Shown here one piece after another: positions 11,284 through 26,264 of a stretch of 64,000 nt of DNA (positions within the stretch are counted from its first letter, which is position 1; each line of letters starts with the position of its first letter). Where the stretch lies: contig JBMFNL010000002.1 in the NCBI GenBank assembly GCA_049970175.1, positions 2,722 through 66,721 of the forward strand, in the 5' to 3' direction. The notes beneath the pieces were generated by a model. The model searched no databases and was not told the origin of the DNA. It was given only the letters and a program-made list of their open reading frames with translations. The stretch comes from Chloroflexia bacterium. GTDB taxonomy: Bacteria > Chloroflexota > Chloroflexia > DTKN01. The position numbers were made by a program, and so were the translations under genes.

Positions 11284-11318
11284 GGGAGTAGGTCGGTTTG
11301 ACAAACCAACCTACTCCC
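11284..11318. repeat. palindrome GGGAGTAGGTCGG-tttgacaaa-CCAACCTACTCCC (site B of the GTAGGTCGG-N9-CCGACCTAC family)
   Basis: 10-bp perfect outer stem plus inner GGTTTGACAAACC palindrome; lies between the ferredoxin gene and the Fe-S-domain gene. Confidence 0.6.
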
Positions 11319-11329
11319 CTTCCTGACCT

Positions 11330-11620
11330 TTACCCGGACGTCGGAGCGTACTTCTTCCGCAGTTCCTGGACCAGGGCGACGATCTCCTCTTTCTCCGGGA
11401 AGTGGATGGCCTCTTCGGAACAGACCTTGGCGCAGCCCATGCAATAGACGACGCAGTCATCGGGGCGGGCGACGACCGGGATGTTCCGTTCGTCATCCCA
11501 GTCATAAACATTGGAGGGACAGAATTCTATGCAGGACCGACAGCCCACACAGAGGTCCGCATCCACCGTCGGGTGCCAGGGCACCTCGTGTCGGGGAATG
11601 CCCTCCCAGAGTTTGCCCAT
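11330..11620 (-). CDS. 2x[4Fe-4S] ferredoxin-like protein
   Basis: CVGCRSCIEFCP and CVVYCMGCAKVC cysteine motifs. Confidence 0.6.
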   Translation of the reverse strand: MGKLWEGIPRHEVPWHPTVDADLCVGCRSCIEFCPSNVYDWDDERNIPVVARPDDCVVYCMGCAKVCSEEAIHFPEKEEIVALVQELRKKYAPTSG

Positions 11621-11621
11621 C

Positions 11622-11999
11622 TCACTCCTCCTGTCGTGTCGCCCGGGCCACGGCCTCGGCTACCTTCCGGAAGGCCTCCTCGGTGGAAAGGTTGCGCAGG
11701 TCCAGGGCAACTACCTGCCGGTCAAAGTCCACCCCGCGCTCGGCCAGGGTTTGCCGGAACATCTTGCGCTGCATCATGGGGTCGCAGGCCCCTACAACGT
11801 ACGTGACATCCGGTTTGGCATAGTCCAGCCAGAAGCGGTCACCATCGGCCACGCAGAGTTGGGGGTGAACGATGGCGTACTCGACGTCCAGTTCATTACG
11901 CACCCGGTTGATCAGTTGCCACAGGTTCAACTGGGCAAAACCCGGGCATTCCCCGGTGCAGATGCACATAACGAAACGGGGCTTGGACATAGCAAACAC
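11622..11999 (-). CDS. MvhD/FlpD-like hydrogenase iron-sulfur subunit homolog (degenerate)
   Basis: RFVMCICTGEC...VVGACDP...LAERGVDFDRQVVALDLRNLSTEEAFRKV aligns with the FlpD (PF02662) pattern from memory. Confidence 0.4.
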   Translation of the reverse strand: MFAMSKPRFVMCICTGECPGFAQLNLWQLINRVRNELDVEYAIVHPQLCVADGDRFWLDYAKPDVTYVVGACDPMMQRKMFRQTLAERGVDFDRQVVALDLRNLSTEEAFRKVAEAVARATRQEE

Positions 12000-12211
12000 C
12001 TCCTCATAGTCGATTTTTCAAACGATGGAAAAGGCCGGCCCTTCCCCATCGGGCGGAGGCGGACGTTTCACCCCCGGCCCGCGACCCTTCAGGCAGTGGC
12101 AACGGCAGGCCATGGGACATCCCCGTTTCCGGCTAGATCCTTGCTTTCTCATCCGAACAACTTGCCCTGCACAAGCATCGGCCCCGACCCGGGGACCTCG
12201 ATCAGAACCTT

Positions 12212-12358
12212 TCAACCGCCCTCCATCGCCTGGAGGAGCGGGGCGCGCAGGTGCTCCCGGATAAAGGCCAGGGCCGCCTCGGCATCGCTGTCGAGGAGGA
12301 TGCGGTAGAGTTCCTGCACCTCTTCTTCCGTCAGCGGCACCACCAGCGCCTTTTTCAC
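12212..12358 (-). CDS. small ORF (48 aa from GTG, 58 aa from an in-frame TTG), possible ribbon-helix-helix DNA-binding protein
   Basis: VKKALVVPLTEEEVQELYRILLDSDAEAALAFIREHLRAPLLQAMEGG*; GC3 41/48; RBS GGAG 7 nt upstream; directly downstream of a consensus promoter; shorter than the ORF-track cutoff. Confidence 0.25.
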   Translation of the reverse strand: MKKALVVPLTEEEVQELYRILLDSDAEAALAFIREHLRAPLLQAMEGG

Positions 12359-12418
12359 CGTCTTTCTCCGGCCGGGCCGCCCGTCTCTCAACGGCCGCTT
12401 CTATAGATTTCGGTTGAT

Positions 12419-12446
12419 ATTATACACCGAAACGGCCGGTTGTCAA
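12419..12446 (-). promoter_or_regulatory. near-consensus sigma70 promoter TTGACA-N16-TATAAT
   Basis: Minus-strand reading GGATTTGACAACCGGCCGTTTCGGTGTATAATATC; drives the small ORF and probably the MvhD-like/ferredoxin/Fe-S genes. Confidence 0.5.
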
Positions 12447-12458
12447 ATCCGCTGAGTC

Positions 12459-12485
12459 GTGGTCGGTTGGACAGACCGACCTACC
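12459..12485. repeat. palindrome GTGGTCGG-N9-CCGACCTAC (site A), directly upstream of the -35 box
   Basis: Inverted repeat GGTCGGT/ACCGACC read directly; same arm sequence and 9-nt spacer as sites B and C. Confidence 0.55.
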
Positions 12486-12500
12486 GGGGACAAGAGCGGT

Positions 12501-13226
12501 TCAGGAGCCCCCGGGCGTCTGGGGGCGCAGCGCGCTGCGTCCATATCGGCGCAGGCGGGCGACCACGCTGCCCACCTTGCTCCAGGGCGGGCTGGGCCGG
12601 CCGAGCAGCCGGCCCCGGGCCAGGGCGGCCAGGAATTCCTGGGGACCGGAAAAGGCCGGCAGGAGCACCGTACAGGCCCCCACCTCCCAGACGCTGTGAG
12701 CGTCCGAGCCGGCCGTTAGAGGCAGGGCCAGCCTTCGCCCCAGCGCCTCGGCCCGGTGGTTGTTCTCCTGGCGCAGGACCCGGCCGTTGCGTCCCTCGAC
12801 AAAGTCGAGCAGGCCGGCCCGGGCGAGTTCCTCCACCACCTCCAGCGGCAGCACATGTCGCCAGGAATCGCAGGGATGGGGCACCCCCACCAGCCCGCCC
12901 TGGGCCCGGATGGCCCGCGCCGTCGCCCAGACGTCCATGGCCGCCGGGACCTCCTTCCGCAGAAACAGTCCCAGCACTTCGCCCTGGAGCGAAGCGACCT
13001 CCTCTCCCACGATGATCTGCAACCCCGCCGGGGTCAGGCGCAGCACCTCCAGCGCCCCCGCTATCGTGTCATGGTCGGTTATGGCGACGCCGGCCAAGCC
13101 CTTCCGGAGGCACACTTCCAGAAGTTCGGCCGGGCTGAGCAGGCTATCGGGCGAGGCCTCGGTGTGCAGGTGCAGATCAAAACGTCTCAGCATCCAGGGC
13201 TCCAGCGAGGGTTTCGACAGGCTCAA
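12501..13226 (-). CDS. PHP-domain metallophosphoesterase
   Basis: FDLHLHTEASPDS...ITDHDT...GSDAHS histidine motifs; TTG/ATG start ambiguity (13226 or 13193). Confidence 0.6.
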   Translation of the reverse strand: MSLSKPSLEPWMLRRFDLHLHTEASPDSLLSPAELLEVCLRKGLAGVAITDHDTIAGALEVLRLTPAGLQIIVGEEVASLQGEVLGLFLRKEVPAAMDVWATARAIRAQGGLVGVPHPCDSWRHVLPLEVVEELARAGLLDFVEGRNGRVLRQENNHRAEALGRRLALPLTAGSDAHSVWEVGACTVLLPAFSGPQEFLAALARGRLLGRPSPPWSKVGSVVARLRRYGRSALRPQTPGGS

Positions 13227-13234
13227 CCTAAAGG

Positions 13235-13981
13235 CTACAGGTCGCCGTAGTGATACAGGACCAGGGCGGTGGCCACAACGCCGGCCGTTTCGGCCCGCAG
13301 GATGCGCGGTCCCAGGCTGACCGGGTGGAGGCCGTAGTGGCGGGCCCGTTGCACCTCGGCTTCCGAAAAGCCTCCCTCCGGGCCGATAAAAATGGCCACG
13401 TTGAAGGGGTTTCCCGGTCCGATTTTTCCCAGCACATCCCGCAACGGGGTGGAGGCTTCTTCCCAGGGAAGGAGGGCCAGTTCACCGGTGTGGTGCACCT
13501 GTTCGCAGGCTGCGGCAAAGAGCATGAGCGGCTTCAAGGGCGGCACCCGGCCGCGCCGCGATTGCTCCGCGGCCGCTTGGATAATCTTCTCCCAGCGTTG
13601 TAACTTGCGCCTGGAGAGTTGATGGGCATCCTGGACGATGCAGCGTTCGCTGAGCAGGGGAACAAAGGCGCTGACCCCCACTTCGGTGCCCTTCTGGAGC
13701 GCCCACTCGAAGCGCTCCCCCTTGAGCACGGCCTGGTACAGGGTAACCTGGGTGTGCGGCTCGTTCCGGCAGAGCCGCCTTTTGTGAATCTGGCCGAGAA
13801 TCCGGTCGGGTTCGACCTCCTCCAGGCGCACCTCGTACTCCCAGCCGGAGTTATCGAACACCACCACCGCATCGCCCGGCTTCAGGCGCAGGACATCGCG
13901 CATCCGGTGAACCAGGGCCGGCTCCGCGATGTCCAGCCGGTCGGGGGGAGGCTCCGGAAGCGGGATAAAGAAGCGGTTCAT
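13235..13981 (-). CDS. rsmE: 16S rRNA (uracil1498-N3)-methyltransferase RsmE
   Basis: MNRFFIP...GPEGGFSEAEV...RILRAETAG; ATG overlaps the prmA stop (ATGA). Confidence 0.75.
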   Translation of the reverse strand: MNRFFIPLPEPPPDRLDIAEPALVHRMRDVLRLKPGDAVVVFDNSGWEYEVRLEEVEPDRILGQIHKRRLCRNEPHTQVTLYQAVLKGERFEWALQKGTEVGVSAFVPLLSERCIVQDAHQLSRRKLQRWEKIIQAAAEQSRRGRVPPLKPLMLFAAACEQVHHTGELALLPWEEASTPLRDVLGKIGPGNPFNVAIFIGPEGGFSEAEVQRARHYGLHPVSLGPRILRAETAGVVATALVLYHYGDL

Positions 13982-14901
13982 CGGCCTTCTCCGGGACGGC
14001 GATGGACCAGGGCCACCCAGTCGCCCTCCTGGAGTTGCCCGACGGCCGGCAGGCCGGCCGCCTGGAGCGTCGTCCGCACCTCGCCGGCCTGCTCCACCAG
14101 GATGCCTGAGGCGATCAGGATTCCCCCGGCGGCCAGGGCTGCGGCCAGCCGGCCGGCCAGTTCCTGGATCGTCCGGGCCAGGAGGTTGGCGAGGAGCAGA
14201 TCGAAGGGGGCCATGCCGTCTTCCAGTGTTCCCTCCCGCACCCGGATGCGGCCGCTCAGCCGGTTGCGGCGGATGTTCCGGCGGGCCGCCTGTACGGCGA
14301 TGGGGTCGCGATCCAGCGCCAGCACGGGGCCGCTGCCCAACCGGGCCGCGGCGATGGCCAGGATGCCCGAGCCGGTGCCCAGGTCCAGGACACGCATTCC
14401 GGGCTGAAGAAAGCGCTCCAGGGCGCGCAGGCAGAGTTGGGTCGTCGGGTGCAGCCCGGTGCCAAAGGCCGGGCCGGGGTCCAGCCGGAGGGCGATCTGG
14501 CCGCGGGATGGGCGAAAGCGTTTCCAGGCCGGCACGACCACCAGCCGCTCGCCGACCTGGAGGATGGGGTAGTAGGCCTTCCAGGCCTGTCCCCAGTCTT
14601 CCTCGGTGAGGGTGCGCACCTGGAGCGGACCGATGGGGCGCAGGTGGCCCAGGCACTTCAGGGCCATCTCGACCTGGCGGACCGTCTGGGCCGCGTTCGT
14701 ATCGCGGGGGATATAGGTGTGGAGGACGGCCGGGCGGCTCGGGTCTGGAAGCAGAGAGAGGCCGTCCTCGGCCGGCCGGTGCGCCTCCTCGATGACGATG
14801 CCGCCCTGGTAGCCGTAGCGGGACAATACCTCGCAGACGGCCTCCACCGCCTCCGGGTCGGCCTCCACGCTCAATTCGAGCCAGGTGCCCGTTCGGTCCA
14901 T
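13978..14901 (-). CDS. prmA: ribosomal protein L11 methyltransferase
   Basis: VLDLGTGSGILAIAAARLG SAM-binding motif and PrmA-like N-terminal domain. Confidence 0.8.
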   Translation of the reverse strand: MDRTGTWLELSVEADPEAVEAVCEVLSRYGYQGGIVIEEAHRPAEDGLSLLPDPSRPAVLHTYIPRDTNAAQTVRQVEMALKCLGHLRPIGPLQVRTLTEEDWGQAWKAYYPILQVGERLVVVPAWKRFRPSRGQIALRLDPGPAFGTGLHPTTQLCLRALERFLQPGMRVLDLGTGSGILAIAAARLGSGPVLALDRDPIAVQAARRNIRRNRLSGRIRVREGTLEDGMAPFDLLLANLLARTIQELAGRLAAALAAGGILIASGILVEQAGEVRTTLQAAGLPAVGQLQEGDWVALVHRRPGEGR

Positions 14902-14922
14902 CCCCAGGCTCCGCAGCGAGGG

Positions 14923-15288
14923 TCAGCCGGCCAGGGCAGCGCGGGCTCGGCCCAGGGCCTCGTGGGCTTGATCGAGATCGCCTTCCGAGGAAAAACCCAG
15001 GACGAGGAAGTAGGCGGGCTCGTCCGTCAAAGGGGTTCCCAGGAAGTTGAACCGGGCCGTCCCCAGGAAAAACTCGGGGCTGGGATGGGCAGTGAGCGCC
15101 CCGGCGGCCTTTTGCACCGCCTCGGCCAGGGAGGCCAGTTCCACTTCCAGTATTTCTGAGTCCACCTCCTGGAACGATTCCGCCAGGGCGATCTGCACAC
15201 CCAGGCCGTCCATCCCCAGGAGGCCGGCCAGGACCGCCCCGGGTACGGAGGCGAGCATCGTGGTCAACACTTCCTCGATTTCTTCCAT
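14923..15288 (-). CDS. roadblock/LC7-like small protein, hypothetical
   Basis: 121 aa; weak resemblance to the roadblock/LC7 fold (LASVPGAVLAGLLGMDGLGV). Confidence 0.3.
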   Translation of the reverse strand: MEEIEEVLTTMLASVPGAVLAGLLGMDGLGVQIALAESFQEVDSEILEVELASLAEAVQKAAGALTAHPSPEFFLGTARFNFLGTPLTDEPAYFLVLGFSSEGDLDQAHEALGRARAALAG

Positions 15289-15308
15289 CCGGTTCTCCTT
15301 GCTTTGCC

Positions 15309-15923
15309 CTACATCTCCCGCCGGCCTTCCAGCGCCCGGCTCAGGGTCACCTCGTCGGCATATTCCAGGTCCCCGCCCATCGGCAGGCCGTGGGCCAGGC
15401 GGGTCACGCGCACCCCCAGGGGAATCAGGTGCTGGGCCAGGTACATCGCCGTGGCATCGCCTTCCAGGTTCGGGTTCGTGGCCAGAATCACTTCCTCCAC
15501 CGGCTGAAGCCGCACCCGGGTGAGGAGTTCGCGGATACGCAGGTCTTCGGGGCCGATGCCCTCCACCGGGGAGATGGCCCCGTGCAGGACGTGGTAGAGT
15601 CCCCGGTAGCGCCCGGTGCGCTCCAGGGCGATCACATCCAGCGGCTGTTCGACGACGCAGATGCGCGACCGATCGCGCTCCTCATCGGCGCAGATGGGGC
15701 AGGGGTCCGTCTCCGTGATGTTGAAGCAACGCGAGCAGAGGAGGATGCGCCGCTTCATCTCCAGGATGGCCTCGGCCAGGGCACGGGCTTCTTCCTCGGG
15801 CGCACGCAGGAGGTAGTAGGCCAGGCGCGAGGCGCTCTTGGGGCCGATGCCTGGAAGTCGGACCAATTCTTCTACCAGCCGGGCCACCGGCCGGGGCAGG
15901 TAACGTTCCACCTCGACTGGCAA
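15309..15923 (-). CDS. recR: recombination protein RecR
   Basis: [17 protein letters not shown] helix-hairpin-helix, CSRC...CPIC zinc finger, Toprim domain. Confidence 0.85.
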
Positions 15924-15949
15924 GGCAGTCCTCCAGGCTCGTCGGAGGC

Positions 15950-16255
15950 CTACCGGCGCAGGCCGGGGAGGCCCAGGCCCTCCAGCAGGGAGCGCATACT
16001 TTCCTCGGCCAGTTGGCGGGAGCGGGCTACTCCCTCGTTGAAGGCGGCGATCAGGAGGTCCTGGAGCATCTCGACCTCCTTAGGATCGATCACCTCCGGG
16101 GCGATGGCCAGTTCCTGCACCTCCTGCTGGCCGTTCATGACCAGCCGCACGGCTCCGCCTCCCACCGTAACCTCAACCGTTCGGCCGGCCAGGTCCTGCA
16201 TCACCTGTTCCTGTTTCTGCTGCACCTGGCGTAAGAGTCTGGGGTCCAGTCGCAT
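15950..16255 (-). CDS. ybaB: YbaB/EbfC nucleoid-associated protein
   Basis: [40 protein letters not shown]...; classical dnaX-ybaB-recR gene order. Confidence 0.75.
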
Positions 16256-17918
16256 CCTCGACCTCCTCGCTACCTTCGGGGAGCACCCCGACGATCCTGG
16301 CGTTGAAGATGTTGGCCGCGGCTCGGACGCGGGGGTTCTCCTGTTGCCGTCCCTCGGATGTCCGGCCGGCCGACTCGTTCAGGACACAGCGGATGCCGGA
16401 ATTGCCGTGCAGGGCTTTGCTCAAGGCCTGTTCCACAATGCGCCGGTTGTGCACCTCCTCGATCTTGCCTTTGTGGAATCCGTAGCGAAAGCCCAGGACG
16501 ACGATACGGCCCTCCACGGCGACGGGCTGGCAGCCGTGGAGCAGGGCCTGCACCGAGGGGTCTACCGGGCGGATGCTCTCGACCACCTCGGGCCAGACCC
16601 GCAGGACGTCCTCCAGGGTGAGCGGCCCGCCGGCGCTCTCCATTTCGACAGGCTCCGTGCACCGCTCGGCCGATGGAGGGGGAGCGGGAACGGTAACGGG
16701 CCGACGTTCTGCCGCGCTCTTCCGTACCGCAGGGGATGCCGGGCGGCCGGAGGTGGAAACCTGCGGCGGGGCGGCTACGGATCGGCCGGCCGGGCGGGCC
16801 GTCGGCTCTTCGCTCCGGGGAGGCGACCCTGCGACCGGAAGCGTGGCCTCCACCAGGGCCAGTTCAAAGGGCAGTTGGCCGTACCAGCCTGCCCGCAGGT
16901 CGGCGTCGAGCAGGCTGAAACGGCGCACCCAGTCGGCCAGGCGGGCCACCGTGGTCCGCTGCACGCGGAGGCGCATCTCCGATAGGGTCTCGTCGGTGAC
17001 GTCGAGCAGGTCGGCCCCATCCTGGGTCACGGCCAGGAAGAGCAGCCCCCGCAGGTAAGCCACCAGTTCGCGGTTGAACTGGCGCAGGTCCACGCCGTCA
17101 TCCACCAGGCGCTGGAGGAGGCGCAGGGCGGCCGGCAGATCCCCGGCGATGAGGGCGTCCACCAGCAGGGGCACCTGTTCGCCCCCGCGCATCCCCAGGA
17201 GGGCCTGCACTTCGCCTACGTCAAGCGTTCCCTCGCGCCCATAGACCAGCAGCTGGTCCAGCAGGCTTTCGGCATCGCGGACGCTTCCGGTAGCGCTTCG
17301 GGCGATGAGTTCCAGGGCCGGCCGGGTGGCCTGGATGCCTTCGGAGCGGGCGATGTCCTCCAGCCGTCGGACGATGTCGGATGTACGGATGCGGCGAAAG
17401 TCAAAGCGCTGGCAACGCGAGAGGACGGTGGGCGGAATCCGCTGGGGTTCGGTGGTGGCCAGGACGAAGATGACGTGCGGCGGCGGCTCCTCCAGCGTCT
17501 TCAGGAGGGCGCCCATGGCCTCGGCCGTGAGCATATGGCTTTCGTCGATGATATAGACCTTGTAGCGCGCCTCGCTGGGGGCGAAGCGCACCTTTTCCCG
17601 CAGGTCGCGAATTTCGTCGATGCCCCGGTTGGAAGCGCCGTCTATTTCGATGAGGTCCACGGCCCGGCCCTCGTTGATCGCCAGGCAGGTCGGGCAGGTG
17701 TTGCAGGGCAGGGGAGGACCGCCGGTGCAGTTGACCGCCTTGGCCAGGATGCGGGCGGTGGAGGTTTTGCCGGTGCCCCGGGGGCCGGCAAAGAGGTAGG
17801 CGTGGGCGATGCGGCCGGCGGCCAGGGCCCGCTGCAGGGTCCGGGTGATGTGTTCCTGCCCGATGATCTCCTCGAAACGCTGGGGGCGCCACTTGCGATA
17901 GAGAACCTGGCCGGCCAT
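16173..17918 (-). CDS. dnaX: DNA polymerase III subunits gamma/tau
   Basis: FEEIIGQEH...AYLFAGPRGTGKTSTARILAKAVNC...IIDESHML; start MAGQVLY at 17918. Confidence 0.85.
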   Translation of the reverse strand: MAGQVLYRKWRPQRFEEIIGQEHITRTLQRALAAGRIAHAYLFAGPRGTGKTSTARILAKAVNCTGGPPLPCNTCPTCLAINEGRAVDLIEIDGASNRGIDEIRDLREKVRFAPSEARYKVYIIDESHMLTAEAMGALLKTLEEPPPHVIFVLATTEPQRIPPTVLSRCQRFDFRRIRTSDIVRRLEDIARSEGIQATRPALELIARSATGSVRDAESLLDQLLVYGREGTLDVGEVQALLGMRGGEQVPLLVDALIAGDLPAALRLLQRLVDDGVDLRQFNRELVAYLRGLLFLAVTQDGADLLDVTDETLSEMRLRVQRTTVARLADWVRRFSLLDADLRAGWYGQLPFELALVEATLPVAGSPPRSEEPTARPAGRSVAAPPQVSTSGRPASPAVRKSAAERRPVTVPAPPPSAERCTEPVEMESAGGPLTLEDVLRVWPEVVESIRPVDPSVQALLHGCQPVAVEGRIVVLGFRYGFHKGKIEEVHNRRIVEQALSKALHGNSGIRCVLNESAGRTSEGRQQENPRVRAAANIFNARIVGVLPEGSEEVEDATGPQTLTPGAAETGTGDAGPGRPNG

Positions 17919-17973
17919 TTCCCATCTCCTTGAGCCTGGGGACACCTTTTGTCCCCGGTCTGGCGTCCCTTCT

Positions 17974-18003
17974 ATTGTACTACGGCCGGGCCGGTTGTGC
18001 AAA
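17974..18003 (-). promoter_or_regulatory. putative promoter TTGCAC-N17-TACAAT for dnaX
   Basis: Minus-strand reading TTGCACAACCGGCCCGGCCGTAGTACAATAGAAGG; a perfect hairpin GGGGACA-N5-TGTCCCC lies in the following 5'UTR (17938-17956). Confidence 0.45.
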
Positions 18004-18175
18004 CGGCTGGAAACTGTATGTAGAGGGGCGAGACCGGATTTCGATACGGCCGTCGCTACGCTCCGGCCTGCTTCACACGGCGCCTCGCCCATGCCTCCGA
18101 GGCTCGTACCCTCGACAGGCAACGGGCCGGACGGGCCCCTTCGCGTTCCGACACGCCTCCGCAACCGTCCCCCTG

Positions 18176-18246
18176 CTGCCGGGCGAGGATTCGAACCTCG
18201 GCTAAAGGATCCAAAGTCCCCCGTGCTACCGCTACACCACCCGGCA
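18176..18246 (-). tRNA. tRNA-Gln (anticodon UUG)
   Basis: Hand-folded cloverleaf: acceptor stem TGCCGGG/CCCGGCA with the U1:A72 pair typical of bacterial tRNA-Gln; anticodon loop CTTTGGA; T-arm CGAGG-TTCGAAT-CCTCG; discriminator G; CCA not encoded. Confidence 0.75.
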
Positions 18247-18256
18247 GGACACTTTC

Positions 18257-19625: not shown

Positions 19626-20184
19626 AGCGCGTCCGCGCCTTCCACCCAACCAGCGTCTGGTCACCCGGATGCCCGTCCTTCACTATGGGCCGGTCCCCCG
19701 GGTAGACCTCGCGCGCTGGGATTTCCGTCTCTTCGGCCTGGTGGAGGCGGAGGTGCGCTGGACATACCCGGAGTTTCGTGCCCTGCCCGCCTGGGAGGTC
19801 ATCTGCGATGTCCACTGCGTGACCGGGTGGAGCATGTTCGATACCCGCTGGGAGGGCGTTCCGGTGCAGGAGGTGATGCGTCATGTGCGGTTGAAGCCGG
19901 GGGCCCGCTACGTCCTCGTCCATGCCGAGCACGGCTTCACGGCGAACCTTCCCCTGGAGGTCTTTCTGGCCGAGGACAACCTCTTTGCCTGGGGCTATGA
20001 AGGTCGGGAACTCGCCCCGGAGCACGGCTGGCCGCTGCGCCTGGTGGTGCCTTCCCGTTACTTCTGGAAGAGTGCCAAGTGGGTGCGGGAGGTCGAGTTT
20101 CTGGACCATGACGTGCCGGGCTTTTGGGAGCGGGCCGGCTATCATCACAACGGCGACCCGTGGAAAGAAGAGCGTTATGAATAA
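19615..20184 (+). CDS. sulfite oxidase-like molybdopterin-binding oxidoreductase (small YedY/SorA-like form)
   Basis: CVTGWS...RYFWKSAKWVREVEF motifs of the Mo-co-binding fold. Confidence 0.55.
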   Translation: MSAEARPRLPPNQRLVTRMPVLHYGPVPRVDLARWDFRLFGLVEAEVRWTYPEFRALPAWEVICDVHCVTGWSMFDTRWEGVPVQEVMRHVRLKPGARYVLVHAEHGFTANLPLEVFLAEDNLFAWGYEGRELAPEHGWPLRLVVPSRYFWKSAKWVREVEFLDHDVPGFWERAGYHHNGDPWKEERYE

Positions 20185-20199
20185 CTCCGGAGGTGCGAA

Positions 20200-20670
20200 A
20201 TGACCGAGACCGGGCCCATCCAGGTCGGCGAAGCGGCCCCCGATTTCTCCCTGAAGGGTAGCCTGGGCAGCCAGGTACGCCTGAGCGACTACCGGGGCAA
20301 AAAGGCCGTCGTCCTCTCGTTTCACCCGCTGGCCTTTACCTCGGTATGCTCGGCGCAGATGCTCCTCCTGGAACTGGAACACAAGCGCTTCGAAGGATTG
20401 AACGTCCAGGTGCTGGGCATCAGCGTGGACAGCGTGCCGGCCAAGGAAGCCTGGGCCGCGGCGCTGGGGGTCCGCTCTTTCCCGATGCTTTCCGATTTCC
20501 CCGGCGGCGAGGTGGCCCGCCGGTACGGCCTGCTGCGCCCGGAGGGCTTCTCTGAGCGGGCGGTGGTGGTTGTGGACCGCGAGGGGATCGTCCGCTTCGT
20601 CAAGGTGTATCCGTTGCGGGAGGTTCCCCAACCGGAGGAACTCTGGCCGGTGCTGGAGGCGCTGCCGTAG
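20200..20670 (+). CDS. peroxiredoxin (AhpC/TSA/Bcp-like)
   Basis: PDFSL...VVLSFHPLAFTSVCSAQ with the T-x-x-C peroxidatic cysteine motif. Confidence 0.7.
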   Translation: MTETGPIQVGEAAPDFSLKGSLGSQVRLSDYRGKKAVVLSFHPLAFTSVCSAQMLLLELEHKRFEGLNVQVLGISVDSVPAKEAWAAALGVRSFPMLSDFPGGEVARRYGLLRPEGFSERAVVVVDREGIVRFVKVYPLREVPQPEELWPVLEALP

Positions 20671-20730
20671 GAAAGCCGAATGGGGGCACCAGGGTTTTGC
20701 CCCTTTCGCCGCAGCCCCTGGAGGACCGGA

Positions 20731-22203
20731 ATGGGGGAGGATGTGCGCCGTCAGGTCGAGGAAAAGGTGCTGCGGGCCGTTGCTGAGGGCCGGATGTGGG
20801 CCCCTGGCGAGACGGTGGTGGTGGCCGTCTCGGGCGGGGCCGATTCGCTCTGCCTGCTCCAGGCGCTCTATGCCCTGCAGCCGTGTCACGGGGGGCGGCT
20901 GCATGTGGCCCACCTGGATCACCGTTTCCGGGGGGAGGAATCGGCGGCCGAGGCCCGGAAGGTGGCGGCTCTGGCAGAGGCTCTCGGCCTCCCGGCCACG
21001 GTGGAGGCAGTGGACGTTCCGGCGCTGATGGAGGGGGAGCACCTCTCGGCCGAGGAGGCCGGCCGGCGGGCGCGCTACCGCTTCCTGGCCGGCCTGGCGG
21101 CCTCCCTGGGGGCCTCGGCCATCGCCCTGGGGCATACCGCCGACGATCAGGTGGAGACGGTGCTGATGCATTTCCTGCGGGGAAGCGGGCCGGCCGGGTT
21201 GCGTGGGATGCGGCCGGTCTCGCCCCCGGCCCCCTGGATGACGGAGGGGCTACCCCTTTCGTCCCCGCTGCGCCTGGTGCGCCCGCTCCTGGGGCTGAGC
21301 CGCGGCGAGACCGAGGCCTATTGCGCTGCCTGCGGGCTGCAACCCACGCGGGACCGCTGGAACGAGGACGTGCGTTTCCTGCGGGTGCGCCTGCGCCGGC
21401 AGGTGATACCGCTTCTGGAGGAACTCAACCCACGTTTTCGGGAGGCCGTGCTGCGCCTGGCCCAACTTTTTGCCTGGGAGGAAGAGGACCTCCAGGCCCT
21501 GCTGGAGGAGCGCTGGGCGGCCCTGGTGCGGATGGAAGGCCGGACGGTGCGGTTTCCCCTGGCCGGCTGGCGGGGCCTTCCCCGTACCTTTCGGCTGCTG
21601 GCGCTCCGGCGGGCCGTGGAACAGGTGCGCGGCCACCTGGAGGACCTGGGATGGGAGGCCCTGGTGGCCGCCGGCCGGCTGGATGAGGCCCGGGTGGGGA
21701 CGACGGTAGCGCTGGTGGAGGCGGTGGTGGCCCGGCGGGGCTACGAGGAGATCGCCGTCGGCTGGACGGAGGACCTCGAGGCGGCTGCCCCCTGGCCCGA
21801 CCTGGGCGAAGGATGGATTCCGGTGGTCCTTCCTGGGCGTACGGAACTCCCCGGAGGGCATGCCCTGGTGGCGGAGGAAGGCCGGCCGGAGGAGGCTCTT
21901 CGCACGGCCGGCCCTTGGGAAGTCTGGCTGGACGCCGAAGCCTGCGGCCGTCGCCTCTGGCTGCGCCACCGTCGCCCCGGCGACCGCTTCTACCCCCTCG
22001 GGCTGGGCGGGGAAAAGAAACTTCAGGACTTTTTTGTGGACGAGAAGGTGCCCCGCGCCCTGCGGGGGCGGGTGCCGCTCCTGGTCTCACCCCGGGGCAT
22101 CGTCTGGGTGGTGGGCTACCGCCTGGACGAACGCTTCCGCCTCCGTCCACAGACCCGCCGGGCGCTGCACCTGCGCTGGGAAGGCCCGGAGGCTGCTTCC
22201 TGA
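20731..22203 (+). CDS. tilS: tRNA(Ile)-lysidine synthetase
   Basis: VAVSGGADSLCLL PP-loop (SGGxDS) and lysidine-synthase C-terminal domain. Confidence 0.75.
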   Translation: MGEDVRRQVEEKVLRAVAEGRMWAPGETVVVAVSGGADSLCLLQALYALQPCHGGRLHVAHLDHRFRGEESAAEARKVAALAEALGLPATVEAVDVPALMEGEHLSAEEAGRRARYRFLAGLAASLGASAIALGHTADDQVETVLMHFLRGSGPAGLRGMRPVSPPAPWMTEGLPLSSPLRLVRPLLGLSRGETEAYCAACGLQPTRDRWNEDVRFLRVRLRRQVIPLLEELNPRFREAVLRLAQLFAWEEEDLQALLEERWAALVRMEGRTVRFPLAGWRGLPRTFRLLALRRAVEQVRGHLEDLGWEALVAAGRLDEARVGTTVALVEAVVARRGYEEIAVGWTEDLEAAAPWPDLGEGWIPVVLPGRTELPGGHALVAEEGRPEEALRTAGPWEVWLDAEACGRRLWLRHRRPGDRFYPLGLGGEKKLQDFFVDEKVPRALRGRVPLLVSPRGIVWVVGYRLDERFRLRPQTRRALHLRWEGPEAAS

Positions 22204-22357
22204 ACCGGAGGCCGGGATGGTCCTGACCCTCTTGTACGTCAGCCGGGGCATCGGGATGGAGGGCTTCTGGTATACGCCCAGGGTGCGTTTCCTCTGCCCG
22301 CCGGAGATGGTGGCCGTTGAACTGCGGGCTCCGTAGCGGGTCCTGGAAAGAGGAACT

Positions 22358-24361
22358 ATGCCGAGCGCAGTTGCCGATGTGGGAAGCCGGGCTTTGATGC
22401 GTCGCCTGACCCTGGCCCATCTCCGTCAGGAGGGGGAGGCGGCTCTCCTTACCGGCCTGAGGGAACGGGCCCAGGCTTATTTCCGCCAGGCTCTGGCCCT
22501 GGACGATCGGGATGCCGACCTCTGGGCCCTCCTGGGGGCCACCTTTCCGGAGCGGGAAGCCCGCCGGGGTTGCGCCCGACAGTCCCTGGCCCTGGACCCC
22601 GGCAATCGTCTGGCCTCCTTCCTGCTGGAGGAAAAGTTTCCCTGCCCGCCTCCCTCCCTCCTCCGGGGCCGGGTGGCCGCGGAGGCGCGGATCCGGCCGG
22701 CCGTACATCTCCCCGGACGCATCCTGGCGACTCTGCTCCTTCTGGTGGTGCTGGCGCTGGACATCCTTTGGGGAGGGCTCTACGCCTGGAAGTACGAGGG
22801 GTGCTTCTTCCCCGGCATCCGCCTGGCCGGGCTGGACCTGGGCGGCCTCTCCTACAGTCAGGCCCGCAGCCTCCTGGAGCGGGACCTGGCCGCCTTCCTC
22901 AACCGCCCGCTCCTCCTGGAAGCCGGGGGCCTCCGGTGGAGTCTCCGGGCGGAGGAGGCGGGCCTGCGCTACCGTCTGGACGAGGCCCTGGAGGCGGCCT
23001 GGGCGCTGGGCCGGAGCGGCCCGGCCCCCCTTTCCTGGTGGGAGCGGATGCGCCTGGGCCTCCTGGGGCAGGAGGTGCCCCTGCCGGCCGCCTTGGAGGA
23101 CGCGGTGCTGACGGAGGTGATCGGGCGCCTGGCCGGCGCCCTGGACCGGCCGGCCGGCCCGCCGGAACTGGCCTGGACGGAGGGGCGATGGACGATCTCC
23201 CCCGGCCGGGACGGCCGGCACCTGGACCGGCCGGAGGCGGAGGCCCGGTTGCGGGCGGCGCTCTCCCTCTTGGCCGAGGGTCGGGGGCCGGCCGGGGAGG
23301 CCCCTTGGCTCGTCGCCCTGCCGGTGGTCACCGAGAGCCTGGCCCTGTCCGAGGCGGAGGTGGCCCGCCTGGAGGAGGAAGTCGGGCGGGCCGGCCGGCC
23401 GCTCACCCTGCGCTGTGGTGAGCACACCTGGACGGCCGAGCCCCCCGAGATCGCCCCTTGGCTGCGCATCCGGCGCGGCTCGCTTCCCGATATCCAGGTG
23501 GACCCGGAGGCGGTGCGGGCCTACCTGGACGCGCTGGCCCCGCAACTGGAACGGCCGGCCGAGCGCCCCCGACTGGAGATGCGGGATGGGCGGGCCGCCG
23601 TCTTCCGGCCCGGACGGGACGGCCTGGCCCTGGACCTGGAGCGGGCGCCGGCCGAGGTGGTCGAGGCGCTGCAACGTCGCCTGCAGGGGGAGGAGGTCGA
23701 GGCGGTCGAACTGAGCACGGTGGTCCTCCCGGCCGGCAACGAGGACTTTTTGGCCGAACTGGGGGTGCTGGCACCGGTGGGGGAGGGCACCTCGACCTTT
23801 GTCGGCTCTTCCCCGGAGCGGGCCGAAAACATCCGTATCGGCGGAGCCGAGTTACACGGCCGGCTGATCGCCCCCGATGAGGTCTTTTCCCTGAACGAGG
23901 CGCTCTACCCCATTACCTGGGAAAAGGGCTACCGCTACGCTCCGGTGATTTCGGGCGGCTACCTGGTGATGGGGTTGGGCGGCGGGCTCTGCCAGGTGGC
24001 CACCACGCTCTATCGGGCCGTGCTCTACAGCGGGTTGGAGATCGTGGAGCGGCATCCCCACCTGTGGCGGGTAGAGTACTATGAGCAGGACGCCCCGCCG
24101 GGCTTCGATGCCACCATCTCCCAGGGCGGGCCCGACCTCCGCTTTCGCAACAACACCGGTCGTTACCTCCTCATCCAGGTGGAGACCGACCTGGAGCATT
24201 CCCGCCAGACCATCCGCTTCTACGGCACGCCGCCGGGATGGACGGTGACCATTGACCGGTACGAAATCGGCAACGGGGGGCACACCGTCTCCTACCGGAG
24301 GACGGTGAGCCGGGACGGGCAGGTGCTCCTGCAGGAAACGATCTACAGTTTCTACCAGTGA
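22358..24361 (+). CDS. VanW-family protein with N-terminal TPR-like region and a TM helix
   Basis: C-terminal FSLNEALYPITWEKGYRYAPVISGGYLVMGLGGGLCQVATTLY VanW domain. Confidence 0.6.
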   Translation: MPSAVADVGSRALMRRLTLAHLRQEGEAALLTGLRERAQAYFRQALALDDRDADLWALLGATFPEREARRGCARQSLALDPGNRLASFLLEEKFPCPPPSLLRGRVAAEARIRPAVHLPGRILATLLLLVVLALDILWGGLYAWKYEGCFFPGIRLAGLDLGGLSYSQARSLLERDLAAFLNRPLLLEAGGLRWSLRAEEAGLRYRLDEALEAAWALGRSGPAPLSWWERMRLGLLGQEVPLPAALEDAVLTEVIGRLAGALDRPAGPPELAWTEGRWTISPGRDGRHLDRPEAEARLRAALSLLAEGRGPAGEAPWLVALPVVTESLALSEAEVARLEEEVGRAGRPLTLRCGEHTWTAEPPEIAPWLRIRRGSLPDIQVDPEAVRAYLDALAPQLERPAERPRLEMRDGRAAVFRPGRDGLALDLERAPAEVVEALQRRLQGEEVEAVELSTVVLPAGNEDFLAELGVLAPVGEGTSTFVGSSPERAENIRIGGAELHGRLIAPDEVFSLNEALYPITWEKGYRYAPVISGGYLVMGLGGGLCQVATTLYRAVLYSGLEIVERHPHLWRVEYYEQDAPPGFDATISQGGPDLRFRNNTGRYLLIQVETDLEHSRQTIRFYGTPPGWTVTIDRYEIGNGGHTVSYRRTVSRDGQVLLQETIYSFYQ

Positions 24362-24381
24362 GCCTCGTTTCAGCGGCCCGG

Positions 24382-24410
24382 TTGCCCCCGACGGCCTCCC
24401 GTGATAAAAT
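24382..24410 (+). promoter_or_regulatory. putative promoter TTGCCC-N17-(TGa)TAAAAT for the phosphate transporter
   Basis: Hexamers read directly; lies inside the ORF-track extension of pit, so the downstream ATG 24449 is preferred. Confidence 0.35.
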
Positions 24411-24448
24411 CTCCTACACTTTCGGAAACGGTGCCGGAGAAGGACCGG

Positions 24449-25441
24449 ATGGTGCCAGGCGAACTCGTTTTGCTTGTGCTGGTGGCGTTGCTCTTTGACT
24501 TTCTCAACGGCTTTCACGACAGCAGCAACGTGGTCTCCACGATGGTCGTTTCGGGGGCTATGGAACCGGGGCCGGCCCTCTGGCTGGCCGCCCTGGGGGA
24601 ATTCGCCGGCCCCTTTCTCTTCGGCGTAGCCGTGGCCAGGACGATCGGCTCGGAGGTGGTCGCGGCCCAGGACGTTACCGTCCCGGCCATCGTTTCCGCC
24701 CTCCTGGGCGCGGTCCTCTGGAACCTCTTCACCTGGCTATTGCGCCTGCCCTCCAGTTCGTCCCATGCCCTGGTGGGAGGGCTGGTCGGGGCCATCCTGG
24801 GCGCCTCCGGCCCGGGAAGCATCCATCTGGCCGGCCTGGGCAAGGTCTTCCTGGCCCTGCTCCTGGCCCCCCTGCTGGGGCTGGGCATCGGCTACCTGTT
24901 CCTGCGGGTCGTGCGCTTCCTGGCGGCCGGAGCCACACCGCGCATCAACCGCTTTTTCCGGCTGGCCCAGGTCCCGGCCTCGCTGGCCCTGGCCCTGAGC
25001 CACGGGACCAACGACGGTCAGAAGACGATGGGCATCATCGCCATGGGGCTGGTGGCGGCCGGCCACCTTTCGGAATTTTCGGTGCCGCTCTGGGTGATCG
25101 CCCTTTGTGCCGGGACGCTGGCCCTGGGCACCCTGAGCGGCGGGTTGCGGATCGTGCGTACCCTGGGGACGCGCATCTACCGTATCCGCCCCATCCACGG
25201 TTTCTCCGCCCAGGTGGTCTCCACGGCCGTGATTCTGGGGGCCGCCCTGCTGGGCGGCCCGGTCAGCACCACCCAGGTGGTCGGCTCGGCCATCATCGGG
25301 GTCGGGGCGGCCGAACGCCTTTCCAAGGTGCGCTGGACCGTCTTCAGAAACTTTCTCCTCACCTGGCTGTTGACGATTCCGGCCGCGGCCCTGCTGGCCG
25401 CAGCCTTTCGGCTGGCCCTCCGGGCGCTGGGATCGCCGTAA
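24449..25441 (+). CDS. pit: inorganic phosphate transporter, PiT family
   Basis: LFDFLNGFHDSSNVVST and LSHGTNDGQKTMGII duplicated PiT motifs. Confidence 0.75.
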   Translation: MVPGELVLLVLVALLFDFLNGFHDSSNVVSTMVVSGAMEPGPALWLAALGEFAGPFLFGVAVARTIGSEVVAAQDVTVPAIVSALLGAVLWNLFTWLLRLPSSSSHALVGGLVGAILGASGPGSIHLAGLGKVFLALLLAPLLGLGIGYLFLRVVRFLAAGATPRINRFFRLAQVPASLALALSHGTNDGQKTMGIIAMGLVAAGHLSEFSVPLWVIALCAGTLALGTLSGGLRIVRTLGTRIYRIRPIHGFSAQVVSTAVILGAALLGGPVSTTQVVGSAIIGVGAAERLSKVRWTVFRNFLLTWLLTIPAAALLAAAFRLALRALGSP

Positions 25442-25545
25442 GGGAACCGAAGGCGGGGGTCGAGGACGTGTCGGTGGGACAGCAGGGGTGATAGGTATGC
25501 AGGTGGTGCCGTGCCCGGAGGATGAGGCCGGCGGGGAGGTTCAAG

Positions 25546-26172
25546 GTGCGCTGGAAAGTTTTTCGCCGCCGCAGGCGGCCCGATTTCCATCAGATGCTTC
25601 TGGAGCAGGCCGGCAAGGCCCTGGAGGGACTGGAAGGCCTGGAGGAATACCTGCGTTCTCCCACCGAGGAGCAGGCCCGCCGGGTGCGCCAGTTGGAAAA
25701 GGAGGGCGACGAACTGCGCCGCATCCTCATCGATGAACTGAACCGCACCTTTGTCACGCCCTTTGACCGTGAGGACATCTTCGCCCTCTCGCGGGCCATA
25801 GACGATGTGCTGGACTATGCCCACACCACCGTGAGCGAGATGGACATCCTGCGGGTCGGACCGAACGATTACCTGCGCCGGATGGCCTCGCTCCTCCACG
25901 AGGCCGGGGAGGAAATCTACCTGGCCGTCCAGCACATGCGCCAGCGCCCGGCCCTGGCCGGCGAACACGTCTCCCGGGCCAAGGCCTTTGAAAACCGGGT
26001 GGAAAGCGTCTATCGGGAGGCGTTGGCCGAACTCTTTTCCAGTCCCAAAGACCTGGACGATGTGGTACATATGCTCAAACTGCGCGAGATCTATCGCCAC
26101 CTGAGCAATGCCGCCGACCGGGGAGACGAGGCGGCCAACATCGTCGGGGACATCATCGTCAAGACAGCCTAG
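25546..26172 (+). CDS. DUF47 (PhoU-like) protein, partner of PiT
   Basis: TIGR00153-like sequence; GTG start with RBS GGGGAGG 6 nt upstream (ATG 25522 has no usable RBS). Confidence 0.65.
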   Translation: MRWKVFRRRRRPDFHQMLLEQAGKALEGLEGLEEYLRSPTEEQARRVRQLEKEGDELRRILIDELNRTFVTPFDREDIFALSRAIDDVLDYAHTTVSEMDILRVGPNDYLRRMASLLHEAGEEIYLAVQHMRQRPALAGEHVSRAKAFENRVESVYREALAELFSSPKDLDDVVHMLKLREIYRHLSNAADRGDEAANIVGDIIVKTA

Positions 26173-26180
26173 CAATAATC

Positions 26181-26257
26181 CGGTGCGAACCCGGCGGTGT
26201 AGGTCGGATGGCCCATCCGACCTACACCCGTCCTGACGAATTCGGTGCGAGCCCGGA
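26181..26257. repeat. perfect 33-bp palindrome GGTGTAGGTCGGATGG-C-CCATCCGACCTACACC (site C) flanked by imperfect 17-nt direct repeats CGGTGCGAaCCCGGcGG / CGGTGCGAgCCCGGaGG
   Basis: Read directly; palindrome core at 26196-26227; spans the annotated ATG of the ABC ATPase ORF. Confidence 0.6.
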
Positions 26258-26264
26258 GGCTTCG

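Follow-up and report, generated by a model that had tools for sequence, protein, structure and literature searches.

Classical REPs are present in more than 100 copies per genome. A Y1 transposase of the HUH type recognizes the subterminal hairpins that IS200/IS605 elements form in single-stranded DNA, and the cleavage site is selected by a tetranucleotide guide on the 5′ side. MITEs have terminal inverted repeats that enclose roughly 50–400 bp, together with target-site duplications of fixed length. The GTAG-tagged superfamily of REPs comprises 24 families (Di Nocera, De Gregorio and Rocco 2013, PMC3733652), including GTAG-23 of Thermomicrobium roseum, a member of the Chloroflexi. These repeats are found in Proteobacteria, Cyanobacteria, Chloroflexi and the PVC group. 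Most of them are located between ORFs that are unidirectional or convergent, and a TAG stop codon is often provided by their termini (PMC3733652). The REP of Stenotrophomonas maltophilia (SMAG), a group 3 REPtron, is a perfect palindrome with an 8-bp stem and a 3-nt loop (PMC8266576). A REP-associated tyrosine transposase (RAYT) is known to bind and cleave its single-stranded REP in three systems only, those of E. coli, S. maltophilia and Marinomonas (PMC8266576).

The stretch of DNA analyzed here (64 kb from a Chloroflexia bacterium, to be referred to as the window) contains three related palindromes, at sites B, A and C. We assign them, with a probability of about 0.85, to the GTAG class of REPs, as ordinary selfish or domesticated repeats located behind genes rather than operators of a small regulon. 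The family is of a known kind, a GTAG-class REP with a cognate RAYT, already described from several groups including the Chloroflexi, and it has one peculiarity, the symmetry of its GTAG and CTAC ends. The family unit is 27 nt long and consists of 5′-GTAGGYCGG, three variable stem bases, a 3-nt loop, and the complement ending in CCTAC.

Copy B (11284–11318, minus strand) is a 35-nt hairpin with 17-nt arms, GGGAGTAGGTCGGTTTG-A-CAAACCAACCTACTCCC, and the core GTAGGTCGG/CCAACCTAC. The one mismatch between its arms is a G·U pair on the transcribed minus strand, and the extra inner palindrome described earlier for this site is nothing but the inner portion of the hairpin stem. Copy C (26196–26228, plus strand; GGTGTAGGTCGGATGG-C-CCATCCGACCTACACC) is a perfect 33-bp palindrome, as originally noted, with the 27-nt core GTAGGTCGGATGGCCCATCCGACCTAC at 26199–26225. 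Copy A (12458–12484, minus strand; CGTGGTCGGTTGGACAGACCGACCTAC) is decayed. One of its arms is an intact GTAGGTCGG on the minus strand, while the other has a 1-nt deletion, which accounts for its three mismatches to the family pattern, and the inner stem is broken. The 9-bp arms thought to be common to all three sites are therefore shared by B and C, with A being degenerate. GTAG is present on both strands in B and C, and on one strand in A.

The 9-nt spacers between the arms had been taken as identical. Instead, the three sites have different spacers (TTTGACAAA, TTGGACAGA, and ATGGCCCAT), each of which is self-complementary. As a result, every site forms one continuous hairpin of 12–17 bp with a 3-nt loop. 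RNA folding gives −34 kcal/mol (z = −5.05) for the fragment holding B and −20.8 kcal/mol (z = −2.44) for that holding A. The 92-nt fragment around C has a value of −43.1 kcal/mol, which includes other structure. The copies in the window are all singletons, with more than 1 kb between neighbors and a density of 3 per 64 kb (about 1 per 21 kb).

All three copies are located directly downstream of a stop codon, at distances of 12 (B), 16 (A) and 24 nt (C). Copy B follows the gene for a 96-aa ferredoxin (11330–11620, minus strand) and lies upstream of a PF04060 Fe–S gene in the same orientation. Copy A follows a PHP-domain gene (12501–13226, minus strand) and is separated by 11 nt from a perfect TTGACA-16-TATAAT promoter downstream of it (12446–12419, minus strand). 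The gene calls and Pfam matches around B and A were taken from a 99.96% identical contig (L115), and another metagenome contig (L116) terminates exactly at hairpin A. Copy C follows a DUF47/PhoU-like gene (25522–26172, plus strand) and is itself followed, after 36 nt, by the probable GTG start (26265) of an ABC ATPase gene. For the ATPase, the longest ORF begins at an ATG at 26208, while the GTG at 26265 is preceded by GGAGG at a distance of 5 nt and is at least as plausible. Neither version was found among the protein records. The earlier statement that C spans the start of this gene holds for the longest ORF, but not for the GTG start.

A further inverted repeat in a promoter region (35846–35872), previously considered to be related, does exist but is not a member of the palindrome family. 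It has the reverse arm order (CCGACCTG…CAGGTCGG), and no conservation is seen in the single orthologous pdxS region available (L053).

A pattern scan through 185,579 genomes finds the 27-nt unit at at least 114 loci. Among the matches listed, most are from Chloroflexota metagenome-assembled genomes (MAGs), with some from Planctomycetota, Ignavibacteriota, Verrucomicrobiota and Proteobacteria; a single MAG, DAOUBO01, supplies up to 8 of them. A relaxed rescan of the listed loci (785 kb) gives 34 matches with 1–3 mismatches, about 20 of them extra copies, while shuffled sequences give none. Singletons are found at these loci, as are head-to-tail tandem arrays with periods of 26–44 nt, and a 45-nt array is present in one RAYT locus. 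The unit is sharply bounded, with pairing beyond the 27-mer being at the random level. Three inner pairs are maintained in 93 of 117 free spacers at the listed loci, compared to about 2 expected. Among 36 variants, 97.9% of the cells pair, a percentage that is partly circular since the sequences were filtered for palindromes, and 8 of the 12 pairs are changed on both sides. In these variants G1 and T2 never vary, and the conservation of A3 is 92%. At the listed loci, a conserved TGNCA marks the region of the inner stem and loop. GTAG is paired with a 3′ CTAC in B and C, as in almost all of the related copies, making the element symmetric, a structural variant that is compatible with the function.

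The position behind genes is maintained in the other genomes. The upstream stop codon is within 80 nt in 83 of 107 cases at the listed loci; it is inside the hairpin, as the repeat's own TAG, in 20 of them, at 0–30 nt in 30, and at 31–80 nt in 33. Of 70 intergenic sites that were classified, 28 are between convergent genes, 39 between tandem genes and 3 between divergent genes, counts that rest on the crude ORF calls made in this analysis. No recurrent neighboring gene was found at the listed loci, where the neighbors are unrelated housekeeping genes. The original prediction had mentioned a REP-like element as its alternative, to be recognized by many copies unrelated to promoters. Such copies are indeed numerous across genomes, and related hairpins flank RAYT genes, in agreement with this alternative.

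The association with RAYT genes is physical in the related genomes. E. coli RayT has a tblastn match (E = 6e-8) in one of the loci (L099), where the transposase gene is flanked by hairpins. The gene product belongs to Pfam Y1_Tnp and scores 93 bits against NCBIfam NF047646 (REP-associated tyrosine transposase, cutoff 80), compared to 19 bits against the IS200 TnpA profile (cutoff 55). The closest relatives of this gene are nearly all flanked by palindromes. In its 80 metagenomic relatives, palindromes with a GT[AG]G head have a density of 1.22 per kb beside the gene (up to 200 nt away), compared to 0.05 elsewhere. RAYT genes with flanking REPs are found at L099, L118, L121–L125, L127, L129, L156 and L198–L202, all in related genomes. 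The arms vary with the lineage of the transposase (GTAGGTCGG, GTAGGGCGG, GTAGGACGG, GTAGGACAGG, GTAGCACAGG, and GTGGGGCGG). Moreover, the REP of the lineage itself is repeatedly found in frame within the RAYT gene, immediately after the HUH motif.

His117, His119 and Tyr184 are invariant in 34 homologs. The two histidines align with the HMH motif of E. coli RayT, and Tyr184 with the tyrosine of its DYIY motif, which we take to be the catalytic Tyr115. The overall identity to the E. coli protein is 23% (E = 4e-9). The Chloroflexota RAYT has about 45–60 extra residues in the N-terminal half. The gene is syntenic across three lineages. No RAYT gene is found within the 64-kb window, and a cognate RAYT is probably encoded elsewhere in this genome. 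In three RAYT-bearing relatives, no copies beyond those touching the gene were found in the surrounding 10–20 kb, indicating that the 27-mer family can be sparse.

The window family has several features in common with the GTAG superfamily (PMC3733652). These include the short (20–40 bp), GC-rich stem-loop with a GTAG head, the loop of 2–3 nt, and the compensatory and G·T variation in the stem. The location just past coding regions between unidirectional or convergent ORFs, the termini serving as TAG stop codons, the occurrence as singletons, dimers and tandem clusters, and the repeats flanking RAYT genes are shared as well. In the published families GTAG is described as a tag that is left unpaired and is found at one end only, whereas here it is paired with CTAC, giving a head on both strands and making the element a full palindrome. 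The long stem is shared with family GTAG-24 (12–13 bp here). GTAG-23 of T. roseum is described as blocks at a few loci, in contrast to the dispersed singletons here. One of the 24 published consensus sequences may still match the present family.

The E. coli REP/BIME system with RayT (YafM), a group 2 REPtron (PMC8266576, PMC3479197), has a nearly identical head (GTAGGCCGGAT compared to GTAGGTCGGAT here), a transposase gene flanked by its own REPs, and a homologous protein with the HUH motif and putative catalytic tyrosine aligned. In comparison, the stem of the E. coli REPs is bulged and imperfect, a form required for activity, and their loop is larger. RayT acts on the REP alone and not on its complement, the iREP, while the two strands of the present family are nearly identical. 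SMAG shares the perfect stem and 3-nt loop. Its GTAG head is needed for cleavage and specific loop bases matter, and TGNCA is conserved here; the stem of the present unit is longer, with 12–13 bp including the GTAG. As with REPINs (Bertels and Rainey 2011, PMC3116915), the RAYT is syntenic across lineages. A REPIN, two inverted REPs with a short spacer moving as one unit, was considered and rejected for the window copies, which are singletons, with singletons or head-to-tail arrays at the related loci; it is the single unit itself that is symmetric here. IS200/IS605 elements have the same type of substrate, a hairpin in single-stranded DNA for an HUH Y1 transposase. However, the present repeats are stand-alone 27-mers with no transposase or TnpB between paired ends, and the associated protein scores as a RAYT rather than as IS200 TnpA.

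By analogy with the E. coli, Stenotrophomonas and Marinomonas systems (PMC8266576), the 27-nt unit would fold into a hairpin in single-stranded DNA, and the RAYT (TnpA-REP), an HUH/Y1 transposase, would recognize this hairpin together with the GTAG foot. The enzyme may then cut at a nearby CT dinucleotide, with strand transfer spreading copies through the genome. As GTAG is paired with CTAC, every copy has a CT in its 3′ foot and both strands would offer the same substrate. Copies would persist where harm is small, just downstream of stop codons. Once transcribed, the hairpin (about −20 to −34 kcal/mol) probably becomes a structure at the 3′ end of the mRNA or between cistrons, like those of known REPs. 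It is conceivable, though we consider it doubtful, that the symmetry represents an undescribed, double-tagged REP architecture, and that the in-frame REP in RAYT genes is a cis-acting device. The two DNA strands would then be equivalent RAYT substrates with the CT cleavage dinucleotide built into the hairpin foot, and the 27-mer would be a self-contained minimal mobile unit common to several phyla. The REP after the HUH motif might be an autoregulatory or self-targeting device acting in cis instead of an accidental insertion.

Of the other explanations, chance palindromes in a GC-rich genome have a negligible probability. There are 150 inverted repeats with 8-nt seeds in the window, and the looser pattern GGTCGG-N9-CCGACC (up to 2 mismatches) is found there at the chance rate (16 compared to 15). 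The full pattern GTAGGTCGG-N9-CCGACCTAC with up to 3 mismatches, on the other hand, has 3 matches in the window compared to 0.04 expected, and none of 100 shuffled sequences reaches 3. This count confirms the three related palindromes of the original prediction and, together with the recurrence of the identical unit in other genomes, already refutes the chance reading. Operators for a dimeric transcription factor, the small regulon originally favored, would be consistent with the 9-bp arms at fixed spacing, the perfect sigma-70-type promoter next to A, and the position of C upstream of the ATPase start. However, the spacers differ and are self-complementary, which is not required of a dimer site and indicates a hairpin rather than two half-sites. 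The three copies are directly behind stop codons, and the excess of convergent over divergent settings (28 to 3) at the listed loci is the reverse of the operator pattern. The hairpin provides the stop codon of the upstream gene in 20 cases there, the neighboring genes are unrelated, and copies form tandem arrays and both flank RAYT genes and sit inside them. The regulon is thus largely refuted and very improbable.

The hairpins could also be host-encoded RNA structures, terminators or stabilizers of mRNA 3′ ends, with no involvement of mobile elements. Their high stability, their location 12–24 nt past stop codons, and the G·U pair on the transcribed strand of B are in keeping with such a role. 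None of the three was called in a terminator scan, however, and no T-run (U-tract) follows any copy. Moreover, conservation of sequence is not needed for such structures, whereas the same 9-nt arms and the GTAG head are found again in different phyla; the loop base shows no bias with the orientation of the upstream gene (C 21, G 15 at the listed loci), and there is the specific link to RAYT genes. An RNA role fits as a secondary consequence of a REP and leaves the origin of the hairpins unexplained, making this an unlikely account. MITEs or remnants of insertion-sequence ends might be suggested by the direct repeats around C, CGGTGCGAACCCGGCGG (26181–26197, plus strand) and CGGTGCGAGCCCGGAGG (26243–26259, plus strand). 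These 17-nt repeats are real (15 of 17 identical), with the second located 2 nt away from where it had been placed. The ribosome-binding site (GGAGG) of the GTG start lies within this second repeat. An equal repeat is found at 12 of 3000 random positions in the window (p about 0.004). Of 117 hairpins at the listed loci, 10 are flanked by exact repeats of 9 nt or more, compared to 2 of 579 controls, and L031, L047, L066 and L069 have repeats similar to those at C. Nevertheless, most copies have no flanking repeat, the repeats vary in length, about half of them are simply tandem arrays, and those at C have offsets of 0 and 14 nt and do not adjoin both ends of the hairpin. The direct repeats at C are an occasional feature and not a regular target-site duplication. 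The 27-nt unit with random flanks is also far below the size of a MITE and has no terminal inverted repeats besides the hairpin, and we regard this explanation as highly improbable.

The assignment to GTAG-class REPs removes a false lead for annotation. The sites are unfit for inferring a regulon, and ORF starts called inside such hairpins, for example the ATG at 26208, are suspect. In practical terms, the hairpins mark the 3′ ends of genes and break metagenome assemblies, as in L116. They may also shape mRNA stability inside operons, such as that of the ferredoxin and Fe–S gene pair at B. For the biology of REPs, the finding contributes a REP/RAYT family that is widespread in Chloroflexota and whose 27-nt substrate is symmetric and unusually clean. 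This substrate would be a convenient model for the two open questions of how RAYTs recognize perfect palindromes and choose their cleavage sites (PMC8266576).

The palindromes at sites A, B and C belong to a GTAG-class repetitive extragenic palindrome (REP) with a cognate REP-associated tyrosine transposase (RAYT), that is, to a REPtron, with the linkage to RAYT coming from related genomes. The pattern GTAGGTCGG-N9-CCGACCTAC, with up to 3 mismatches, matches exactly these three sites in the window, against 0.04 expected, and no shuffled sequence gives three matches, which bears out the original observation of three related palindromes. Site B is located at 11284-11318 (GGGAGTAGGTCGGTTTG-A-CAAACCAACCTACTCCC), site A at 12458-12484 (CGTGGTCGGTTGGACAGACCGACCTAC), and site C at 26196-26228 (GGTGTAGGTCGGATGG-C-CCATCCGACCTACACC). 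The 9-nt spacers had been described as identical, but they differ (TTTGACAAA, TTGGACAGA and ATGGCCCAT). All three spacers are self-complementary though unlike one another, and as a result each site forms a single uninterrupted hairpin, with 12-17 bp of stem and a 3-nt loop. The extra inner palindrome that had been noted in site B is merely the inner portion of its own stem. Further TAGGTCGG octamers are found in the window at 4190, 41579, 58235 and 60890, all without a palindromic partner, and they appear to be situated in coding sequence.

For RNA of the transcribed strand, the fold of the fragment with site B is at -34 kcal/mol (z = -5.05), and that of the fragment with site A at -20.8 kcal/mol (z = -2.44). 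The 92-nt fragment around site C folds at -43.1 kcal/mol (z = -3.10), a value that includes structure outside the hairpin. Site A has decayed: one of its arms has lost 1 nt, and its inner stem is broken. The sole mismatch in site B is a G.U pair on the transcribed strand, compatible with a constraint at the RNA level though no proof of one. A scan of the window at the Rfam gathering thresholds finds one tRNA only, placing the sites under no described RNA family, and a literature search for the literal sequence returned only unrelated primer matches.

The gene context of sites A and B was taken from the gene calls of a contig of assembly GCA_049971335.1 (L115), which was found through the ferredoxin gene. 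This contig is 99.96% identical to positions 1330-21620 of the window and provides no comparative information. On the minus strand, the stop codon of a PHP-domain gene is at 12501 and site A lies 16 nt beyond it, followed by a perfect TTGACA-16-TATAAT promoter (12446..12419, minus strand) and two small ORFs. This promoter has 12/12 matches to the sigma-70 consensus, is positioned 11 nt downstream of REP copy A, and heads a cluster of small-ORF, ferredoxin and Fe-S genes. The stop codon of the 96-aa ferredoxin gene is at 11330 (minus strand), with site B 12 nt beyond and then a PF04060 Fe-S gene. Site C begins 24 nt past the stop of a DUF47/PhoU-like gene, itself located after a PiT phosphate transporter. 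All three copies are thus directly behind a stop codon, among co-directional genes. Site C ends 36 nt ahead of a GTG codon at 26265, which has GGAGG 5 nt before it and is likely the true start of the ABC ATPase. The hairpin had been said to span this start, which is correct for the ATG of the longest ORF (26208, inside the hairpin) and incorrect for the GTG. A look-up of the ATPase protein with either start, aimed at orthologous context for site C, found no record, and in one locus with PiT-DUF47 orthologues (L102) the downstream synteny differs from that of the site C region. An independent metagenome contig (L116, ENA ERZ3623746 NODE_13136), matching the window at 100% identity, stops precisely where REP copy A has its outer edge (window position 12485), which looks like an assembly break at the repeat.

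A single scan of 185,579 species genomes with the pattern GTAGGTCGG-N9-CCRACCTAC gave at least 114 matching loci, against a rough chance expectation of one to two dozen. Among the matches listed, the majority are Chloroflexota MAGs (Anaerolineae, Caldilineae, Litorilinea, Ardenticatenaceae, Thermoflexales and Chloroflexus), and the others include Planctomycetota, Ignavibacteriota, Verrucomicrobiota and a few Proteobacteria, the isolates Shimia sediminis and Neisseria sp. included. The spacer was left free in this search, and among the matches listed three inner pairs are formed in 93 of 117 spacers (about 2 expected) and four in 75, common forms being ATTGSCAAT, ACTGNCAGT and AATGNCATT. Pairing among these matches falls to the random rate outside the 27-mer, so that the unit is sharply ended, with a weak preference for T/A at positions -1 and +1. 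Relaxing the scan over the 785 kb of listed loci gave 34 matches at 1-3 mismatches, about 20 of them extra copies, and shuffled sequence gave none. The copies include head-to-tail arrays with periods of 26, 38, 43 and 44 nt, and an array with a 45-nt period was found in a RAYT locus. These fixed-period arrays (L062, 764-868; L109, 6166-6306; L075, 3129-3241; L098, 4730-4887; and L120, downstream of 2564) resemble BIME clusters. In L075, another small hairpin, CCCCGTTTCGGGGG, is interleaved with the copies of the array.

The direct repeats reported around site C are real. The two copies, CGGTGCGAACCCGGCGG (26181-26197) and CGGTGCGAGCCCGGAGG (26243-26259), are identical at 15 of 17 positions, and an equally good repeat is found at 0.4% of random window positions. 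The ribosome-binding site of the gene downstream lies within the second copy. Of 117 hairpins among the matches listed, 10 are flanked by exact repeats of at least 9 nt, compared to 2 of 579 controls; about half of these cases are tandem arrays, but the hairpins of L031 (18 nt), L047, L066 and L069 are single copies. These single copies, like site C, have imperfect direct repeats of 11-18 nt on either side. Target duplications are not an expected product of HUH transposition. The repeats at site C are possibly a remnant of tandem reiteration of the REP with its flank, or a product of replication slippage at the hairpin. Tandem reiteration of this kind is described for REP clusters (PMC3733652).

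The fixed spacing had originally suggested the site of a dimeric DNA-binding protein and a small regulon, with a REP/MITE-like element as the alternative. We classified 120 hairpins by position, the 117 among the matches listed from the species-genome scan and the three window sites, using our own crude gene calls. About 93 are intergenic, 12 are at the very start of a longest ORF, and 15 are within ORFs. Among those classifiable on both flanks, 28 are between convergent genes, 39 between tandem genes, and only 3 between divergent genes. Among 107 distances to an upstream stop codon, the stop is inside the hairpin in 20 (its own TAG), at 0-30 nt in 30, and at 31-80 nt in 33. This distribution is opposite to that of operators, and the regulon reading is rejected. 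All-against-all clustering of the neighboring ORFs of the 114 listed loci found no recurrent partner protein, and the neighbors belong to generic families (ABC ATPases, histidine kinases, GlmS, RecQ and thiolase). Published GTAG REPs occur chiefly between ORFs that run in one direction or converge, and their ends provide TAG stop codons (PMC3733652). The convergent and tandem placement and the stops within the hairpins follow the same pattern, and the REP alternative is correct. The loop shows no significant orientation bias relative to the direction of the upstream gene. The sites were also considered as intrinsic terminators, but there is no T-run after A, B or C, and a terminator scan calls none.

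A fourth inverted repeat, CCGACCTG-N11-CAGGTCGG at 35846-35872 in the divergent pdxS/tsaE region, had been proposed as a relative of the three palindromes. It has a 7-mer in common with the REP arms, but the arms are in reverse order, the fold is weak (-16 kcal/mol), and the repeat is missing at the orthologous place in an Anaerolineales MAG (L053), where the pdxS coding sequence is 81% identical. It is rejected as a family member and is probably a chance or unrelated local feature. The same intergenic region contains a plus-strand hairpin, GACAGGGGCGAAGGACGGCCCTGTC, with a T-run, CTTTTTCTT, starting 8 nt after it (35785-35830), and no plus-strand gene ends there. A long inverted repeat at 48321-48408 has 39-nt arms that are 85% complementary, separated by 10 nt and strongly polypyrimidine/polypurine (CCCTCACCCCACTCCCCC... 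/ ...GGGGGTGAGGGGTGAGG).

A RAYT gene was not found in the 64-kb window. A tblastn search with E. coli RayT (from NC_000913) against the window and all the loci gathered matched one locus, L099 from an uncultured Chloroflexia MAG (E = 6e-8). The RAYT-like gene in this locus is located directly after der/engA, with a hairpin upstream (TAAGTCGGAGCGGCGCTCCGACCTAT, 5246-5272), a hairpin downstream (GTAGGTTGGACTGGCAGTCCGACCTAC, 4556-4582), and a third 27-mer inserted in frame within its coding sequence (4825-4851). A frameshift near 4935 could be a sequencing error, as the name of the MAG suggests that it is perhaps a long-read assembly. The reconstructed protein starts MKEYYRRHLPHWQP...FFVTFRL, contains NHVHVVF, and matches Pfam Y1_Tnp. 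It scores 93.2 bits against the NCBIfam equivalog NF047646, "REP-associated tyrosine transposase" (cutoff 80), and only 19 bits against IS200 TnpA. Homologs at E ≤ 1e-10 number 3659, with Chloroflexi and Anaerolineales supplying the best, and many of them carry the JGI name RayT. In an alignment of 34 homologs, the HUH histidines and the tyrosine aligned with that of the E. coli RayT DYIY motif are invariant.

A metagenome scan with this alignment gave 80 loci. In nearly all of the closest relatives (L118-L129), hairpins directly adjoin the RAYT gene; they are on both sides in L125, in six copies in L124, and also beside the gene in L118, L121-L123, L127 and L129. More distant relatives have the same architecture with other arms (GTAGGGCGG, GTAGGACGG, GTAGGACAGG, GTAGCACAGG, GTAGATCGG and GTGGGGCGG). 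The density of palindromes headed by GT[AG]G is 1.22 per kb up to 200 nt from the gene, compared to 0.05 per kb in the remainder of the same loci. Pairing holds in 97.9% of cells among 36 hairpin variants, and both sides change in 8 of 12 pairs; as the variants were gathered through a palindrome filter, the informative point is the coordinated change of the arms between lineages, not the pairing percentage.

Three lineages with 70-78% identity share the position of the RAYT gene, which comes after a 2-oxoacid dehydrogenase E1a-E1b-E2 operon (L198, 6606-10630; L199, 5857-10648; L200, 6583-10666) and has two hairpins 10-80 nt ahead of its start. Such constancy suggests that the gene is domesticated, single-copy and passed on vertically, unlike a jumping insertion sequence. 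Some RAYT genes have a lineage-specific REP in frame immediately after the catalytic HUH motif, in the layout NHVHVVF-[REP-encoded 9-20 aa]-IMQSLKRHT. Besides the copy in L099, it is located at 10377-10403 in L198 and 10404-10430 in L200, and is also present in L118, L119, L131, L133, L152, L153, L156 and L157; the relatives L126, L129, L130, L136 and L139 are without it. The in-gene REP could be a cis-regulatory device, mark a hot spot for insertion, or have co-evolved with the REPs of the genome.

The family is a new member, of mildly unusual symmetric form, of a well-described class. GTAG REPs are already reported in Chloroflexi (T. roseum, family GTAG-23) and the PVC group (PMC3733652). 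The E. coli REP head, GTAGGCCGGAT, is one base off GTAGGTCGGAT of the present family. There are several differences, however, from the published GTAG families. Their GTAG is an unpaired tag at one end, whereas here GTAG occurs at both ends and is paired; the stem is perfect and, at 12-13 bp, long; and TGNCA is the conserved form of the inner stem and loop region. REPINs are inverted doublets, while the window copies, the three counted in this genome within 64 kb, are singletons.

In other systems, RAYTs bind the folded single-stranded REP, for which the GTAG foot is required, and cleave at CT (or CA) on either the 5′ or the 3′ side of the hairpin, with strand transfer possible (PMC8266576). 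GTAG is thought to guide the choice of cleavage site through cross-complementarity, and the E. coli enzyme is inactive on the complementary strand, iREP (PMC8266576). By analogy, we infer that the 27-mer would be the substrate of a Chloroflexota-type RAYT. As its GTAG is paired with CTAC, both strands would be the same substrate, and each copy would carry a CT in its 3′ foot. Copies would pile up behind stop codons because insertions are presumably tolerated there. Once transcribed, they may serve as stable 3′-end or intercistronic hairpins, a role argued for other REPs (PMC3733652; bioRxiv 10.64898/2026.03.23.713779).
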